A DNA stretch of 64,000 bases from Squalus acanthias (lineage: Eukaryota). Under the pieces are notes generated by a model, which made no database searches, was not told where the DNA came from, and worked only from the letters and a program-made list of their open reading frames with translations. Below are positions 10,321 to 61,136 of the stretch, piece after piece (positions within the stretch are counted from its first letter, which is position 1; each line of letters opens with the position of its first letter). Location: assembly GCA_030390025.1 (NCBI GenBank), contig CM059441.1, positions 67,146,001-67,210,000 on the forward strand, read 5' to 3'. The position numbers and the translations under genes were made by a program.

Positions 10321-11749
10321 TTCCTGTGGCGTTTGGTTTAATTAGGAGTCTGTTGTGTGGGACGTTGTGAAAAGCTTTCTAACTGTCCAGATTAACAGTG
10401 CAAGCAATGATGCTGAAGCAGATAAACTCTAAATGGGCCCTGGGTTAGGGAGGGGGAAAATCGGTTCGGGTTCCTGCTCCTGCTCACTAATTCAAGACCA
10501 CTGCTGGAAATGCAACCGAGTATCAAGTGCAGTATAAATGTTGGCTTCTCAATACGCTGAGGCGCTGGCTTAGGGGTTCCTGACATTTCGGACTTCTCCA
10601 GATTTGAACAAAAACGTTAATACACAGCAGCTGACCTACTATAAAAGGTTAAGGATGGTCCTTTACTAACTGTGGAAACAGAGTGATTTTCAAACCAACA
10701 GTCTCCCTCACGGCAACGCTATCGCTTGTGAGATACAAGAGAGATTGCATAGAGCTCCATCATTCTTAAGAGAAACCAGAAAGCACCCTCTAACCACACT
10801 CCTCATTTTCTTCTGGCTCCCACAGACGGTGTTACAGGGGACGTCACAGAGAGGCTTTATTGTGTGAGCAATGTTGTGGTGCGTATTCAACAGCCAACTG
10901 GAATCATAAAAAAAATCCTGACTGCAGCATACATCATCATTATACTGCTCCTGGGATTCAGGAAGCTGCTCTCTCTCATTACTTCTTGTTCCAGCCACAC
11001 GCAGCTCCTGTTTATTCAGCAGGCTAAGTATCGAATGAAGACTTTAATTGTTCCAGCGGACTTCCGTGGGTTGTGCACCTTCATGGTATTTTTTCTCCCC
11101 CCACCCCCCAGAGAAATTAATGCAAATAACCACATGGATTCCATTTTTTCATTAAACGTGCTAGTTTAATACTTCTAGCAGGGTCCCCTTCTGTTGAAGG
11201 GTATTCTTGACACTGCTGTGTTTGGCTTATGGTAAAACATTGCCCTTAACTTTTGAAGATGTCGGAGTGTATCGCTCTTTAAATGTTATGTAACGTTCTT
11301 CCTTCTTTTCCCCTTTCTAGCTGATTCGCGTCATGCAGCCTCCACGTTATTCCAGGTGAAGGGAGGATGGAAAAGCACAGCCCACAGCTCCCTGAATTTC
11401 ACCAGCGTTATCCTTCAATTTAACCGCCTCCCCCTTATCACTGGGTGACATGCTTTTTAGCGCAACCATTTAAAAAAAAATCTTCACCATCCATTCTCCA
11501 GTTCCCAAAGCACATTCAGTAAGTGCCGAGAATGACCTCTGCACAACAGGTAGCTGATATCAAGTAAACAAGAATTCTCAAAAACATCAAATTTCCCCCC
11601 CATCCAATTTTAGGGCCTCCTACGCTCGATCGAGAAGGCAGACAAGCAAACTACGCCCAATCCTCAACTGCTAAACCAGCCGCAAGGCCGGAAAACACTA
11701 CCTTCTGGGAAACTCACCCTGCACTTTCCCCCAATGAGTTTGGGATCTT

Positions 11750-11886
11750 ATACAAAAGCAAAATACTGCGGATGCTGAAAATCGGAAATAAAAACAGAAA
11801 ATGCTGGAAATACTCAGCAGGTCAGGCAGCAACTGTGGAGAGAGAAACAGAGTTAATGTTTCAGGTCGACGACCCTTCGTCAAAAC
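11750..11886 (-). mobile_element. Short PLE 3'-end copy with mutated hammerhead core
   Basis: Matches the PLE 3' repeat; perfect 15-bp TSD TGAGTTTGGGATCTT (11735-11749 / 11887-11901). Confidence 0.85.
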
Positions 11887-12703
11887 TGAGTTTGGGATCT
11901 TGCTGTGCAGGGACAAAGCTGTATCTGATCACTCAATGACGCATCACATTGCTGCTCCGTTGCAGTTCACCTTTTGCTCAGTTGGCCTCTTCACCCAGAA
12001 AGCATTTTGATGACGTACCAATCTTTTCGCCCACTGCTCTTCCTCTCCGGAAGGTGTTGGTTTTCCTCACTGGGGTACAGTTTCAAGGCAACAATACACC
12101 CCGTGTTAGTGTTCCATCGTTGAGCTTGATATTGAGCGGCGGCAAGCTACACAACTGTTGAGGACGCCATAACCGACCCCTTTTTCCTGTCCTCAGCCCA
12201 CGTGCACGTCCAGTAGGGCATCCCCGACAGCGATTGGGAGAGGAAACCCTGGCCCATTTCAACATCGCTAACCCAAGGATACTCCAGCCGACTGCAGCAA
12301 CCCTAATGCCATCCAGGCGAGGTCAGCAAAGGTCACTACAGACTTGGGATCAAACGCGAGTCCTTCCTGGTCAAGGAGACTTTATTTCCAAGCCACCAGG
12401 GGCATAAAAATAAATTTCAGGCTGCTTTCAACTTCAAATAAACATATACAAACCCCCTCAGCAATACAAGTTCTTTTTCTGCTACCTTCAGCAAGAGATC
12501 TCCGGTTTTGCAAACGGATCAAAACGGCAATGTTTCAGGCGTCACGTGTGCCCTGACCTCGCAGCACTCTGTGCAATGTCAAAAAAAGTGCGTCAGATTT
12601 CTGGAAACAATACCATCCATTTCTAACACAAGAGACAACATCCCAAAAGGCCTCGAGGATCACACGTGGCCTCAACAACCAAGAACAAAGCTGCACTTTG
12701 CAG

Positions 12704-12738
12704 TACAAAGGCAAGATACTGCGGATGCTGGAAATCTG
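12704..12738 (-). mobile_element. 35-nt tail-only PLE insertion
   Basis: TACAAAGGCAAGATACTGCGGATGCTGGAAATCTG matches the extreme 3' tail of the copies at 11750 and 42173; CTGCACTT on both sides. Confidence 0.55.
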
Positions 12739-13422: not shown

Positions 13423-13627
13423 TCGGAAATAAAAACAGAAAATGCTGGAAACACTCAGCAGGTCAGGCAGCATCTGTGGAGAGAGAAACAGAGTTAAACG
13501 TTTCAGGTCAATCTTCTGACGAAAGGTCATCAACCTGAAATGTTAACTCAGTTTCTCTCCCCACAGATGCTGCCTGATCTGCTGACCATTGCCAGCATTT
13601 TCTGTTTTCATTTCAGATTTCCAGCAT
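13423..13627. mobile_element. Fold-back (palindromic) PLE derivative
   Basis: Inverted arms of the PLE 3' repeat; CTGACGA core at 13516; degenerate TSD GCACCGAGAAAC / GTACTGAGAAAC (10 of 12 match). Confidence 0.8.
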
Positions 13628-39190: not shown

Positions 39191-39531
39191 GCACCCAATT
39201 AACTCTTTATTTTAAATCTCTATTCTCCTATCCCTTTCAGAGTCACTCAAGCTGCGAGGCCAGGGACACAGATTCAGTCAGTCAGGTAAAAAGGGAGCAG
39301 TCAGACAGCGAGGCAATCCCCGTGACATGTACATATCTGCAATGCAGCAGAGAATCTGCAACATTTGCCAAGCGCAGCGAGATGGAACCTGAGTGCAGAC
39401 AGAGTGAAGCAAGAGACACCAAACCCCAGAAAAGGGCTACTGCTGTTAACCCAGCTCCTCAGAACCATCACAGAGCTGGATATTGATTCTTATTCCCCAT
39501 TTTATCTAAGAACAAACGCACACACACATAC

Positions 39532-39854
39532 TTGGCAGGCTCAAAGTGCTCCCGTTCCGCGTCCGGTGCAGCAGCGGCGCCCTCTAGCGGTTCAGAAGCA
39601 GCACCAACACTGGCTGGCTGCTGCGGATCTGCTGGTGTCTCTCGGTCGGCTTTCCCTGCGCTCTCGCCGTTCTGTTCGGCCGCCTCTGCCGCTACTGCTT
39701 CAGTTTGCTCCTCTGAAGCAACCTCCACCTCCTGACCGGGAGGTGGGATACAAGACTTGTCTTCCTCCATTTTCCTCTTCTTCAGTTTCTCCTCCAGCTC
39801 TTTCAACCGTCTCTCGTTGTCTTGAACGGAATAATGTTCAAACTTCTTGAAAGC
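39532..39854 (-). CDS. NUDCD3: NUDCD3 coding exon 2 (coiled coil and acidic/Ala-rich linker)
   Basis: Acceptor TTCAAG|GCT; AFKKFEHYSVQDNERRLKELEEKLKKRK...EHFEPA; donor AA|GTATGT; 323 nt, phase 2, matches exon 3. Confidence 0.92.
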
Positions 39855-41220: not shown

Positions 41221-41952
41221 CTTATTCCACAAAGACGATTGCTGTGGGAATTGAAACCACCATACTGGAGCAACAGAGCGGGGGGGGATGTTCTTCAGGG
41301 CTTGTGGCTTCAGCCCACTTCCAGAAGGTGCTCGAGCGCCCCAGGACTGGCCCTTCGATCTTCCCCACCGCTTACCAGCTGCCTGAAGTGCATGGTGAAA
41401 CAGCAATACACTTTAATTTTAGTAAAGCACGTTGAAGCATTCGTTTAAACTGTGCCAGCGTTTCTCTCTATAAAATTACTACCTACTTCTGTGTTTGAAG
41501 CCACTTATCTGTTATTGAAGTCATATTAGCGAGTTAGTGCTCTTCTTTAAAGCTGCATGTGGGAACATCTGCATCCGAAATGTTAGATATGCTTGACCTC
41601 AATTGTGTTCAACATAATGGCTTTCAACCAGTAACTAATATCCAAAATGAAATTTACATAAAACTGGTGATTGTGTCAGGGGCTGGAGAGCAAAAGAACA
41701 ATTATCAGCGAGCAGAATTTTGCAAAGGGTTTGAATGAAATCACAAATTGCCACAGCGAAACAGATTAACACAGGATCTAAAATAATGTGACGTCGCGGA
41801 ATAATGACTATTCTGAAGAATTTTTTTTTGACAACACAGTCCTCGCAAATTAAGCACACTGGTTACCTCTTGTTTCTAACCCCTCAAAGATAATAGAAGT
41901 GACTTGTGATTTGCAGGAACTGGTTTTCAAAGGTGAAGTTTTTAAGTGACCT

Positions 41953-42173
41953 AAAAATAGAAAATGCTGGAAATACTCAGCAGGTCAGGCAGCATCTGTG
42001 GAGAGAGAAACAGAGTTAAAGTTTCAGGTCGATGACCCTTCGTCTGATGAAGGGTCATCGACCTGAAACGTTAACTCTGTTTCTCTCTCCACAGATGCTG
42101 CCTGACCTGCTGAGTATTTCCAGCATTTTCTGTTTTTATTTCAGATTTCCAGCATCTGCAGTATTTTGCTTTT
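41953..42173. mobile_element. Near-perfect fold-back PLE derivative in NUDCD3 intron 1
   Basis: 92-nt inverted arms centred on 42045 plus a 36-nt one-sided tail; TSD GTTTTTAAGTGACCT / GTTTTTAGTGACCT; CTGATGA...GAAACGTT core at 42044-42072. Confidence 0.88.
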
Positions 42174-42881
42174 GTTTTTAGTGACCTGTTCCTTATGTTG
42201 ATGACGAGTTCTGAAATGGCTCCAAGGACGTCAATTACGACGGATTAAATCCACTTCTCTAGCTTTCAGGGCCCATCGTGAGAAGCAGCTCAGACCCGAG
42301 AGTGTACCCTGGGCAAGTACAAGCCAAGGCCGTCAACACAATCTTAAGAACATAAGAATTCGGAGCAGAAGTCGGCCATACGGCCCCTCGGGCCTGTTCC
42401 GCCATTCAATAAGATCGTGGCTGATCTTCCACCTCAACGCCACTTTCCTGCCCCTATTCCCCATATCCCTTCAATTCCTCGAGTCCAAATCTTCTGGATT
42501 CAGGAGGTGTTGACAGACAGCTCGGAGTACTTGACGACTCTTAGTTGAAGGGAAATACTTGAGCGCGTTGTATCCCGGTCATGGTTCAGTAAATGGGCGC
42601 AAGTCTCCAGCCTCTCCGCTGGAATAGCTCCGCTGGGCACTCACTGGAGCAAACGTGAAAGAAAGTTGCACGGAACAGATCCAAGAGACCTGCACCTTTG
42701 ACCCCAATGATACACAGTTCTGAGCATAAACCATTTACATCGCTTGCAGTTTGAGGTCAGTATTGTTCCCATTGCCCGAGCAGTCATTTTTTTTCTGGTC
42801 TCTCTTCACAATGGGATGCTTGACAGCTGTGTAAGTGAACTCTGCTACTCTTGACCGTGCTGTTAATCTGCTCCAGTTGTA

Positions 42882-47430: not shown

Positions 47431-49204
47431 ATAACAGAAAACGCTGGAAAAACTCAGCAGGCCAGGCAGCATCCGTGGAGAGAGAAAGAGAGTCAACGTT
47501 TCAGGTCGATGACCTTTCGTCAGAACTGTGAAGAGCCGGAAATCAAATAGATTTAAGGCCAGAGTAAAGCTGGGAAAAGGGGGAGGGGATAAAGGAACAA
47601 AGGGGGAGATGGAGAGACATTAAGAGATATGCAAGGCTAGAGGTGGTGTTAATGTGACAGATTAAGGCTGAAAGAAGTGTGAAATCCACTGGCAGAATGA
47701 AGGACATCTGCCAGCTTCTAGGAGGAAAAAAAAGGTGGGGGGGGCAAATAAAAGGGTGGAAAAAATAAAATATAAATGTGATTGGAGCTGAGGTTATGAT
47801 CTAAAATTGTTGAACTCGATATTGAGTCCAGAGGGCTGTAGCGTGCCTAAACGAAAGATGAGGTGCTGTTCCTCGAGCTTACGCTGCGCTTCCGTGGAAC
47901 AGTGTAATAGGCCGAGGACGGTGAGGTCAGAGTGGGAGTGAAGCGGTGAATTAAAGTGACAGGCCACCGGGAGCTCGGGGTCCCCCTTACGGACTGAACG
48001 GAGGTGTTCCGCAAAGCGGTCACCCAATCTGCGTTTGGTCTCCCCAATGTAGAGGAGACCACATCGTGAGCAGCGAATACAGTATACTAAATTGCAGGAA
48101 GTACAAGTAAATCGCTGTTTCACCTGGAAGGGGTGTTTGGGGCCCTGGACAGTGGGAAGAGGGGAGGTATAAGGGCATGTGTTGCATCTCCTGCGCGTGC
48201 ACGGGAAGGTGCCGGGCGAAGGGGAAGGGGTGCTGGGGGTGGTAGAGGAGTGGACTAGGGTGTCACGGAGGGAGCGGTCCCTGCGGAATGCTGAAAGGGG
48301 AGGTGAGGGGAAGATGTGTTTGGTGGTGGGATCACGCTGGAGGTGGCGGAAATGGCGGAGGATGATCCGTTGAATGTGGAGGCTGGTGGGGTGAAAGGTG
48401 AGGACAAGGGGAACCCCATCGTGGTTCCGGGAGGGAGGGAGGGGCAGGGGTGAGGGCAGAAGTGCGGGAGATAGAACGGACACGGTCGAGGGCCGTGTCG
48501 ACCACGGTAGAGGGGAATCCTCGGTTGAGGAAAAAGGAAGACATGTCGGAAGCACTGGTATGGAAGGTGGCATCATCAGAGCAGATGCGGCGGAGACGGA
48601 GAAACTGGGAGAATGGAATAGAGTCCTTACAGGAGGCGGGGTGGGAGGAAGTGTAGTCCAGGTAGCTGTGGGAGTCAGTGGGCTTGTAGTGAATGTTAGT
48701 CAATAACCTATCCCCAGAGATGGAGATGGAGAAGTCGAGGAAGGGAAGGGAAGGTGAGGGAAGGGTGGAAATTGGAAGCATAGTGAATGAAATGTTCTAG
48801 TTCAGGGCGAGAGCAGGAGACGGCACCGATACAGTCATCAATGTACCGGAAAAAGAGGTGAGGGAGGGGACCCGAGTAGGACTGGAACAAAGAGTGTTCC
48901 ACATATCCCACGAAAAGGCAGGCATAGCTAGGACCCATGCGGGTACCCATAGCAACACCTTTAATTTGGAGGAAATGGGTAGAGTCAAAGGAGAAGTTGT
49001 TCAATGTGAGAACAAGTTCAGCCAGGCGGAGGAGGGTGGTGGTGGATGGGGACTGGTTGGGCCTCTGTTCAAGGAAGAAGCGGAGCGCCCTCAGGCCATC
49101 CTGGTGGGGAATGGAGGTGTAGAGGGATTGTACGTCCATGGTGAAGAGGAGACGGTTGGGGCCGGGAAACTGGAAACTGTTAAAATGGCGGAGGGCATCG
49201 GAAG
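47431..49204 (-). mobile_element. Penelope-like retroelement (Neptune-type), 5'-truncated and frameshifted, RT + GIY-YIG endonuclease
   Basis: ORFs 48708-49223 (MDVQSLYTSIPH, GVAMGTRMGP, RYIDD), 48332-48781 (thumb, HYKPTD) and 47794-48576 (CTRRRCNTC Cys linker, LVYCIRCSRCGLLYIGET); 3' terminal repeat about 47431-47530. Confidence 0.93.
47491..47527 (-). ncRNA. Minimal type I hammerhead ribozyme in the PLE 3' repeat
   Basis: Minus strand AGTT-CTGACGA-A-AGGTC atc GACCT-GAAAC-GTT-GACT: full CUGANGA/GAAA core, 5-bp stem II, palindromic ACGU stem III, GUU triplet, 4-bp stem I. Confidence 0.8.
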
Positions 49205-50946: not shown

Positions 50947-53109
50947 AATCATCTGACTACAAGGTAAGAGCACTACCACTGGGCTAAGGTGATAATTATG
51001 ATCAATTGACACCCCTGCTACTTTCTGTACTTTTCTCCTACACCTTACTGATATTTTTTGTATGATTTCTGTTCCAGAACATTTGGTGCATCACATGATT
51101 CGAGGGCATTGCTATCCAAATTGCTGCCCGTGGGCCCAAGCAATCCAGCCTGCAAACCCCAGGCAACTGGATTGTATTGGCCGCTGATTGCTTTACTCAC
51201 CAGTTTGGCCCGTTTAAATTTCGTCGGTCTCACGGTTTGGAAAAAACACTGTTCTTACTCCTGCTCTGCCTTTAAGACCCTCCCTTAAAACCTGCCTCTT
51301 TATCCAAGCTTTCAGTCACCCAGCCGAATATCTCCTTTGGCTCAGTGTTAATTTGTGTCTAATTGCGGTCCTGCGAAGCGTCTTGGAACGTTTTCCTACA
51401 TCAAAGTTGTTGATGGTGTTCCCATGAGATTGCTGCTCTTCTGCTTTTCCATAGCAGAGGTCACAGGAGAGGGCGATAATGGCCCCCCCTTATTAATGGG
51501 GAAAGGTGCCGGGGTGGGGGTGTTAGGGCGTGGAAAATCTGGCAAGGTCGGGGACGTGGTGGCTCTGCTGATCTTAACTCAATAATGAGTGGCCCCATTT
51601 GTCCGATCAGAGAAGCCAAAGAGCTTGTACACAGCCTGAAACTCAGCGGGAAAATCACTTTAGGACCGGCAAAGAAGGAATTTGCAGTTAGACCGCAGCC
51701 CTGCCCCAAGGAGTCTGCCTCTGCTTTCTTAAAGCCCTGGTACTGTTTTCAGTTTTACTACAATTGGAGACTTAGTGAAGCGAAAGCACTTCACACTGAC
51801 TCTACCCTTGCACTCTCAATGTATGCCAACAGGTTGATACAGGATAGAAAGGGAAAGGGAAATGGAAACGCTTAATCCTGAGCACTATCAAGTTACAATA
51901 GATCTGCAGGATACTGCGACAAAGGTGGATCCAAGTAAAAAGGAGGTTGCGTTAAATACAAAGGGTTTACATTTAGAGAGATGAGCCTGATGTGTCAAAT
52001 TAATTCCCTCGACTCTATTTAATTCCCTCGCCTCTATTTATTTCTACTACATTTATATAATTACTCAGATTGGCACGGAGTTTATGTTGTTGCTAATTTC
52101 AATGTAATGAAGTTTCTAATCCGATTTAATTTGTCTTCAACAAGGATGACTCCATTCATCTGGACCTTGTTATCAGCTGCGACTGTGGTCTGTGCTCACA
52201 GCTGCCCTCAAGTGGGCAATGATGGTACAGCAGGGTGATTCACATAAAGCTGATGTTCTGCTTAACCATTTTAAAACCACTTACCGTCAATTTCCCGAAA
52301 ACAGCCAATCCGGATAATGTTAAAAAGGTAAATACTGCAGATGCTGGAAGTCTACAAAAGGGACATAAAATGCTGAAAGGAGGTCAAGTCAGCATCTGTG
52401 GTGAGAACAGATCAGACCAATCCAGAGCTGAAGAGGTGGATGGTCATATTAATACAAACCGAACAAGGGGAGGGGGACAAGCTGTATCGAGATGAGACAA
52501 GAAATAATGAGTGGAATGTTCTAAATGATCATACAGTAATGGACAGAAGTGTTAATAAAATCACAAACACATTTATAAAATAGTATTGTGAGCTCCAGTA
52601 ACGGGAGTGGAATGTCATTTCAGTTACAAACGTTTGCGGAGACCAAGTCAGTGCTTTCAGGACCATACCGTGGATTTACTAATCTCCACATTGTTAATCC
52701 ATGGTGTGGCCCTGAACTGTATACAAGGTCCCTGGTCTTTGAGTTGACCACAGTTGGCCTGTGACCATGAGGGGAACGGAGACTGGGGAAGCCTGCTCCT
52801 GACTGCTATGCTGTGCTTGTGACTGAGAGTGCTGAGTGATACTGGATTGGGCTCAACTGAGCTGCCCTCCCCCTGGTTGCATGCCCAGTCCAATACTCAG
52901 TACTAAACTTCAATTAAGTTTCAACACAAAAGCCTATCGTTCAAAACAGCCAAGGAGAAAAGGTGAGAAACTGGGATAGAGGAAGTGCTTCTAAAGGCCG
53001 AAAGATTGTCGGGAAGAAAGGAAGTCAGCACTCAATTGTACTGAGGTCCTGGGGAAAAGCACTCCAGGGTCTAGTTTATTTTGCATTTATTGTAGGGAGA
53101 CCTCATGTT

Positions 53110-60955: not shown

Positions 60956-61136
60956 GAACTGAAAATGCTGGAAATACAGAGCATGTCTATCAGTGTCTGA
61001 AAAAGAAAAGACGGGCTGTTTTGAATCAAGAGCCTTTGTCAATTCTGACGAAGGGGATTGATCCAAATGTCTTTCTCAGTTGCTAACCAATCAGCTGTGT
61101 AATTCAGATTTTCAGCAGAGTTCTGCTTTTTATTTC
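60956..61136. mobile_element. Old, decayed fold-back PLE derivative in a POLM intron
   Basis: GAAAATGCTGGAAATAC left arm, CTGACGAAGGG at 61045, decayed right arm ending TTCTGCTTTTTATTTC. Confidence 0.55.

Follow-up and report, generated by a model that had tools for sequence, protein, structure and literature searches.

A 221-nt insertion in a 64,000-nt stretch of Squalus acanthias DNA (hereafter the window) has its centre of symmetry on the core of a hammerhead ribozyme, and raises the question of whether such a palindrome is a mobile element in its own right or is formed anew whenever a larger element inserts. A preliminary description had offered two readings, a hairpin-ribozyme family amplifying itself through a PLE acting in trans, and a recurrent strand switch at the ribozyme fold. 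The anatomy given there holds: the 92-nt arms are mirror images around T42045, 3 of the 92 pairs being mismatched, this centre falls within CTGATGA, a 36-nt tail is present on one side only, and the insertion is flanked by its own TSD of 15/14 bp. The 5′ strand of stem I is missing as described, the inverted arm sitting in its place, and the predicted cleavage after 42072, in the GUU triplet, would concern a copy from which the stem I partner strand is absent. The predicted RNA fold of the palindrome (−172.4 kcal/mol, z = −25; 0 of 200 shuffles equally stable) would also bury the core, in line with the masking that had been supposed, and RNA of the palindrome is predicted not to cleave itself. 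Rfam hammerhead models gave no match in the window at E <= 1; sub-threshold mir-14 matches at 41997–42093 and 13475–13565 are produced by the hairpin shape. An ATG at +50 (window 42094 onward) starts a 30-codon frame running through the tail. The features are collected in Table 1, and positions in the text are relative to the C of CUGANGA as 0 (window 42044).

Table 1. Coordinates of the focal palindrome and of related copies in the window.
Feature	Position	Strand	Remarks
Left TSD, 15 nt	41938..41952	+	one-A difference from the right TSD
Left arm, tailless inverted PLE 3′ repeat	41953..42044	-	short end, ~+93 from C3 of core
Junction TCTGA, 5-nt quasi-palindrome	42043..42047	.	putative annealing of cDNA 3′ ends, with one central mismatch
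Hammerhead core CUGAUGA	42044..42050	+	CpG-decayed form of CUGACGA
Hammerhead stem II	42052..42064	+	5 bp + 3-nt loop
GAAA, palindromic minimal helix III, GUU triplet, stem I 3′ strand	42065..42076	+	
Right arm, PLE 3′ repeat	42046..42137	+	
Tail, 36 nt	42138..42173	+	right arm only; long end, ~+131
Right TSD, 14 nt	42174..42187	+	
Second head-to-head copy	13423..13627 (approx.)	.	own junction, partial tail, degenerate TSD
Single non-palindromic tailed copy, 137 nt	11750..11886	-	start at −3
PLE of sister subfamily, 5′-truncated, frameshifted	47431..49204	-	RT, CX4CxxC linker, GIY-YIG, 3′ UTR, hammerhead, short end
Old weak palindrome of diverged related PLE end (probable)	60956..61136	.	

Sequence identifies the arms as the pLTR end of an EN+ PLE that has a Neptune/Nematis linker motif, because long copies extend upstream via the 3′ UTR into GIY-YIG and RT coding sequence, and because near-full-length copies are arranged as 3′ UTR, hammerhead, tail and main ORF. 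In most near-full-length copies the 3′ repeat lies upstream of the ORF start as a partial tandem, which is the arrangement of a pLTR, and the optional 30–40 bp tail and inverted 5′ copy of EN+ PLEs are both found; insertions of the latter with an inverted 5′-truncated copy and a tail of that length have been described (PMC3846280; PMC8557442). A single ORF contains RT and then GIY-YIG, with matches on broken fragments to PF00078 (E = 4e-6) and PF01541 (E = 2.6e-4) that both lie below the Pfam curated cut-offs. Between RT and endonuclease, the linker CX2-5CxxC is present as CTRRRCNTC; this motif belongs to the definition of the Neptune clade and is common to Nematis too (PMC8557442). The main ORF (MPTLKK...) begins ~35 nt past the tail in copies L156, L160 and L165, whose leader holds several pyrimidine-rich CAG acceptor-like sites, and a pattern for the N-terminal region matched only its own locus in the genome. 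The source element contains the parts of a minimal type I hammerhead (CUGANGA, GAAA, stem II, an NUH triplet and palindromic helix III), with a stem I of 4 bp whose first base is A(−4). Stems I and II pair in 98.1% of cells vs at most 44% when slid, the changes being one-sided and without a compensatory pair. The short helix I, palindromic minimal helix III and mostly solo motifs are shared with metazoan PLE hammerheads, among which dual hammerheads on opposite strands, 100–700 bp apart, are already known (PMC4209133).

Several other copies are found in the window. The second palindrome, correctly described as having a different junction, has arms that are 87% complementary; its right arm begins at −2, its left arm gets only to +13, and the two sides of its TSD match at 13/16 positions. 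The single tailed copy, overlooked in the preliminary description, is flanked by a perfect 15-bp TSD (11887–11901 and 11735–11749). As for the PLE put forward there as a partner-type copy, RT and GIY-YIG fragments are indeed present, but it belongs to a different subfamily, 88–91% identical to the arms. The third palindrome was also upheld in part: each of its arms aligns to the PLE end better than 500/500 shuffles, but the arm-versus-arm alignment is weak, being equalled by 1/500 shuffles, and an inverted-repeat scan of the window did not list the pair; it probably represents an old palindrome from a diverged relative. Shorter or older pieces of the same PLE end lie at 52323–52406 and 12707–12738, and an inverted repeat without relation to the PLE occupies 39391–39663 (31 nt, 71%, spacing 211 nt).

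The 31-mer of the arm used as an anchor has 20,982 exact matches in the 3.71-Gb genome. An unselected set of 172 arms, in whose choice the 5′ end played no part, combines the 100 anchor matches that head the listing for contig C1 (30 taken as search loci and the remainder as 10-kb stretches) with 16 unselected 10-kb windows on other contigs and with the window itself. Further sets were chosen by junction or 5′ end, including 60 stretches around 70 listed places with non-native bases at −10/−9 (5 places were left out). In all, 102 head-to-head pairs were recorded among 418 arms examined for pairing. The anchored sample is biased to young copies and to one contig. Local alignment to natural copies placed the copy ends to within a few bases, and the relatedness of arms was assessed by pairwise distances and permutation. 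Short head-to-head pairs account for 68 of the 172 unselected arms, and the 6 arms found per 160 kb of unselected windows give a rough figure of the order of 10^5 arms genome-wide.

The structure of these pairs bears directly on the origin of the palindromes. TSDs flank 69 of the 102 pairs (mode 14 bp), compared with 1/304 in mismatched controls. All 34 junctions of the unselected palindromes are distinct, and 92 pairs fall into 81 junction classes. Some junctions do recur, the focal class with 10, 17 and 5 exact matches for three CpG forms and the commonest with 36, and animal retrozymes have been reported as PLE-derived non-autonomous elements (bioRxiv 10.64898/2026.07.22.740005); both facts would suit a non-autonomous hairpin-ribozyme retroelement descended from one or a few palindromic masters and mobilised by the PLE in trans. 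The recurrent classes, however, amount to tens of loci against ~21,000 exact anchor matches. At the 27 loci of the focal class, moreover, the same junction carries the tail on the left in 10 copies and on the right in 10; in the other 7 the two arms were not both classed. Distances in this class are 0.033 between left and right arms within a copy and 0.039 between copies, a small gap, vs 0.043 for left-left and 0.032 for right-right comparisons, and no side-specific variant was seen apart from the base fixed by the search pattern. Across 92 pairs, minor alleles are shared between the two arms at 0.0080 per site vs 0.0021 when permuted, none of 2000 permutations being as high. Inverted partners also accompany kb-long copies, in 4/21 rows, of which two hold the same pair and one has an internal fragment as partner, and the hairpin is predicted to bury the core. 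The self-amplifying family thus fails on its junctions, its tail sides and the absence of clustering of arms by side, and we regard it as extremely improbable. SINE-like amplification of a master was likewise rejected, the copies having neither one junction nor one tail side nor side-specific mutations in common.

The comparison of left and right arms suggested in the preliminary description consequently supports recurrent formation, arms being alike within a copy and not by side. One fixed master is excluded, because the tail flips side, the junctions differ and the arms resemble each other within a copy; the mirror half is almost certainly made anew at each insertion. The arm sequences point to one template per insertion, and gene conversion between arms could also yield within-copy likeness. 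In the focal class (42031–42059), CpG-decayed forms occupy 10 and 5 loci vs 17 intact, a higher share than the 12% of all arms at this position; the hairpin tip may mutate faster.

When plotted against the core, as had been proposed, junctions and 5′ ends of the sampled copies cluster at the hammerhead and are not spread evenly along the element. The 3′ region is intact in 165 arms; 113 of these were at risk at −8..+1, and 43 stopped there (4.7% per nt). Stops amount to 1.05% per nt at −18..−9, fall to 0/63 at −28..−19 and come to 0.2–0.4% per nt upstream of −28; on the other side, a broader and weaker excess (0.8–1.3% per nt) spans +2..+21, that is, stem II, and +22..+35, which holds the predicted cut after +28, shows 0.4% per nt. 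The peak at −8..+1 is common to paired (23/68) and unpaired arms (23/104), 1,347 exact matches genome-wide have non-native bases at −10 and −9, and the near-full-length copy L164 likewise begins at −3. The stop site is the 5′ edge of stem I, and neither the cleavage site nor the RT-facing 3′ side of the fold. Five single copies starting from −3 (L101, L183, L199, L203, L247) are preceded by TCT, matching element positions +32..+34, possibly by a small template jump at the RNA end. Contigs from two other organisms show loose ends at −6/−5 and opposite-strand joints near the core (query L165:1207-1223), so that the trait may be common to relatives.

The strand switch at the ribozyme fold is in this sense half sustained: recurrence and junctions at the hammerhead are found, but the fold as a cause is not, since unpaired copies stop there too. 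The corresponding explanation, a switch set off when RT is held up at the core by a hammerhead that is folded or bound by protein, can draw on the 31/34 unselected pairs with an arm end inside −14..+21, on the microhomology that stems I and II supply at recurrent junctions, and on the protein-assisted ribozyme of PAc, an anole PLE (PMC11167929). RT would nevertheless meet the 3′ strand of stem I (+29..+32) first, where stops are not raised (0.4% per nt), and the peak lies on the far side, past a fold that would already have been copied. Furthermore, the 44-nt hammerhead motif folds no better than shuffles (z = −0.5), and single copies stop at the same spot without any switch, all of which makes a stall at the core quite unlikely. 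The fold or its microhomologies do contribute to the stops, because the weaker excess spans stem II, and its self-complementary stems give microhomology for some junctions.

We prefer to see in the stop site the likely 5′ end of the RNA, over a strand switch caused by the ribozyme fold, and the sequence pattern makes it somewhat more probable than an even chance that this end is a transcription start at about A(−4). A TTAAAA box lies 30–32 nt before A(−4) in 54/67 long copies, which, being related, count as one observation; its spacing and the bases around A(−4) fit the TATA/Inr rule and the vertebrate initiator. An extra G is the signature of cap copying. Of 175 matches to copies that start at A(−4), the first 100 were counted by hand, and the preceding base proved to be G in 60, A in 26 and T in 14; G precedes 6/49 copies at the control site +47, a control contaminated by C-to-T variants. 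The excess of G is weak in non-palindromic copies taken alone (12/27, p = 0.05), and in palindromes (13/17) the G is often templated by the other arm; where a TSD-defined single copy has exactly one additional base, at −3/−4, that base is G in 3/3. The internal, TATA-less promoter of D. virilis Penelope (PMC2377424) counts against a TATA-type start.

Processing of the RNA, either by ribozyme cleavage or by splicing to a pyrimidine-CAG ending at −3, would also yield fixed 5′ ends. The native sequence resembles a good 3′ splice site, and in D. virilis the intron ends at hammerhead helix I (PMC4209133). In D. virilis Penelope the distance from the start site to this intron is 46 nt. Cleavage, however, predicts ends at +29, where no peak is found, and splicing predicts upstream exon sequence within the TSD: 25/40 TSD-defined single copies have no extra base, 9/40 have 1–3 extra bases, and 6/40 have 6–13 unrelated bases. 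The 0/63 stops at −28..−19, where a lariat branch might block RT, add to this, and processing appears very unlikely as the source of the 5′ ends.

The 3′ ends are as regular as the 5′ ones. They are bimodal, at ~+93..+101 and +127..+132, that is, two discrete ends 35 nt apart. Once the 22/102 pairs with one unclassed arm are set aside, 78/80 pairs join one tailed and one short arm, with 1 pair having two tails and 1 none; unpaired arms are tailed in 45 cases and short in 53. Of the 36 exact loci of the commonest junction, 30 were examined: 24 carry the tail on the shorter-reaching arm and 4 on the longer (p = 1.8e-4), and 2 have no tail. The tendency is significant there and not across all junction classes (33 vs 22, p = 0.18; 11 vs 8 in unselected pairs). 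Both arms reach −7..−2 in 16/102 pairs, several with inserted bases. In L065, L076 and L082 the tailed arm ends at +76, +92 and +82, near the start of the short arm and with little duplication; such inversions would be expected if two RTs met on one RNA. A search beside unpaired arms for short tail-only partners gave 4 of 172, all of the short type.

One tail per palindrome and the likeness of arms within a copy would equally be accounted for by a self-priming hairpin, in which a single cDNA, or an antisense template, would fold back near the hammerhead and be extended on itself into a long hairpin, one strand of which would lose its tail to the GIY-YIG endonuclease during integration. Self-priming has already been proposed for palindromic PLE junctions (PMC3846280) and endonuclease resolution for the tail (PMC8557442); the commonest junction offers a 4-nt pairing with a 5-nt loop able to prime a fold-back, and the short end lies at an ATT-containing stretch, a motif cut by PAc (PMC11167929). 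A plain snap-back nonetheless expects the tail on the longer-reaching arm, and it is the shorter one that has it in 24/28 cases. Fold-back at the focal junction would need a 1-nt loop, the pairs with both arms at −7..−2 and inserted bases have no fold-back pairing, and single copies of both end types call for two start sites anyway. Self-priming is consequently unlikely in our view.

We instead consider it probable on balance that each palindrome is one ordinary PLE insertion, in which priming on both target strands gives two short cDNAs that are joined head to head. The endonuclease would nick the two target strands ~14 bp apart, and each nick end would separately prime RT, one at the long (tail) start site and the other at the short one. 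In a full-length tandem, transcription would begin within the upstream repeat, at about A(−4), where stem I opens. RT from the 5′ copy of the start sites would copy only 100–135 nt, like retroviral strong-stop DNA. Both cDNAs would derive from one RNA or source locus, with RT from the short site leading, and would run off the RNA 5′ end just before the hammerhead, no ribozyme cut being required. Their 3′ ends would then be joined through microhomology or end joining, in the focal copy by TCAGA self-annealing, and the central mismatch at that junction might be repaired either way, which would fit the 10:10 tail sides.

The scheme has a parallel in PAc (Poseidon, Anolis carolinensis), for which both target strands were extended in vitro, dimerisation was predicted, ribozyme cleavage was dispensable and two RT start sites bound the tail (PMC11167929); the 3′ ends are likewise bimodal here. 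Double priming of both target strands has a good probability, and the extension of both strands by PAc from two sites makes it plausible for the focal element. The two systems also share tail-bounding start sites ~100 nt past the hammerhead and an uncleaved RNA template. PAc belongs, however, to another clade, the element here having the CX2-5CxxC linker and a tail that precedes the main ORF start, and the available part of PMC11167929 contains no tie between two-strand extension and inverted copies and no mapping of 5′ ends. The fuller proposition, that a dimeric PLE enzyme primes both nicks from two start sites of one capped RNA beginning at hammerhead base 1, is more tentative, with a chance a little under even. 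If true, PLEs would make strong-stop-like DNA, and stumps, inverted 5′ repeats and one-sided tails would all follow, by one rule, from its failed transfer.

In L1 twin priming, both target nicks prime on the RNA, giving an inversion without sequence duplication. Here, in contrast, both arms copy the same region, and L065, L076 and L082 resemble the L1 outcome. Head-to-head pLTRs, a tail at one end, a TSD and a short junction overlap or palindrome are common with published EN+ PLE insertions (PMC3846280; PMC8557442), and PMC8969392 is among the publications that deal with inverted 5′ copies, one-sided tails and junction palindromes of PLEs. Unlike those insertions, the whole insertion can here be just two 90–135-nt ends; the same papers proposed self-priming or endonuclease resolution, and what is added here is a countable sample in which the one-tail rule is nearly strict and the 5′ stop sharp. 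Chlamydomonas has very short PLE insertions (median 128 bp; PMC9977147), and the formation of tandem and inverted PLE structures has been called still undefined (PMC8557442). In the cleavage-and-circle model for metazoan hammerheads (PMC4209133) ends fall at the cut site, whereas the ends here lie ~30 nt upstream. Animal non-LTR retrozymes (bioRxiv 10.64898/2026.07.22.740005) are likewise non-coding, pLTR-derived and hammerhead-bearing, but they are head-to-tail tandems with complete hammerheads, and the focal element is head-to-head, has a broken stem I and gives no sign of amplification of its own. A literature search covering few subscription papers, and lying outside Dfam and Repbase, did not find the family, the one-tail rule or the 5′ pile-up at the hammerhead.

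The palindrome is thus a genuine feature of a known kind and does not define a new family of elements. Transcripts of such hairpins, if made, could enter editing or small-RNA pathways. Annotators should be wary of these palindromes, which mimic MITEs, retrozymes or miRNA hairpins and are by-products of insertion. For the biology of PLEs, they provide countable rules of integration (a single tail and a single template for each pair, a constant 5′ stop and a tailed arm that trails at the commonest junction), which are directly testable in a PAc-like in vitro system.
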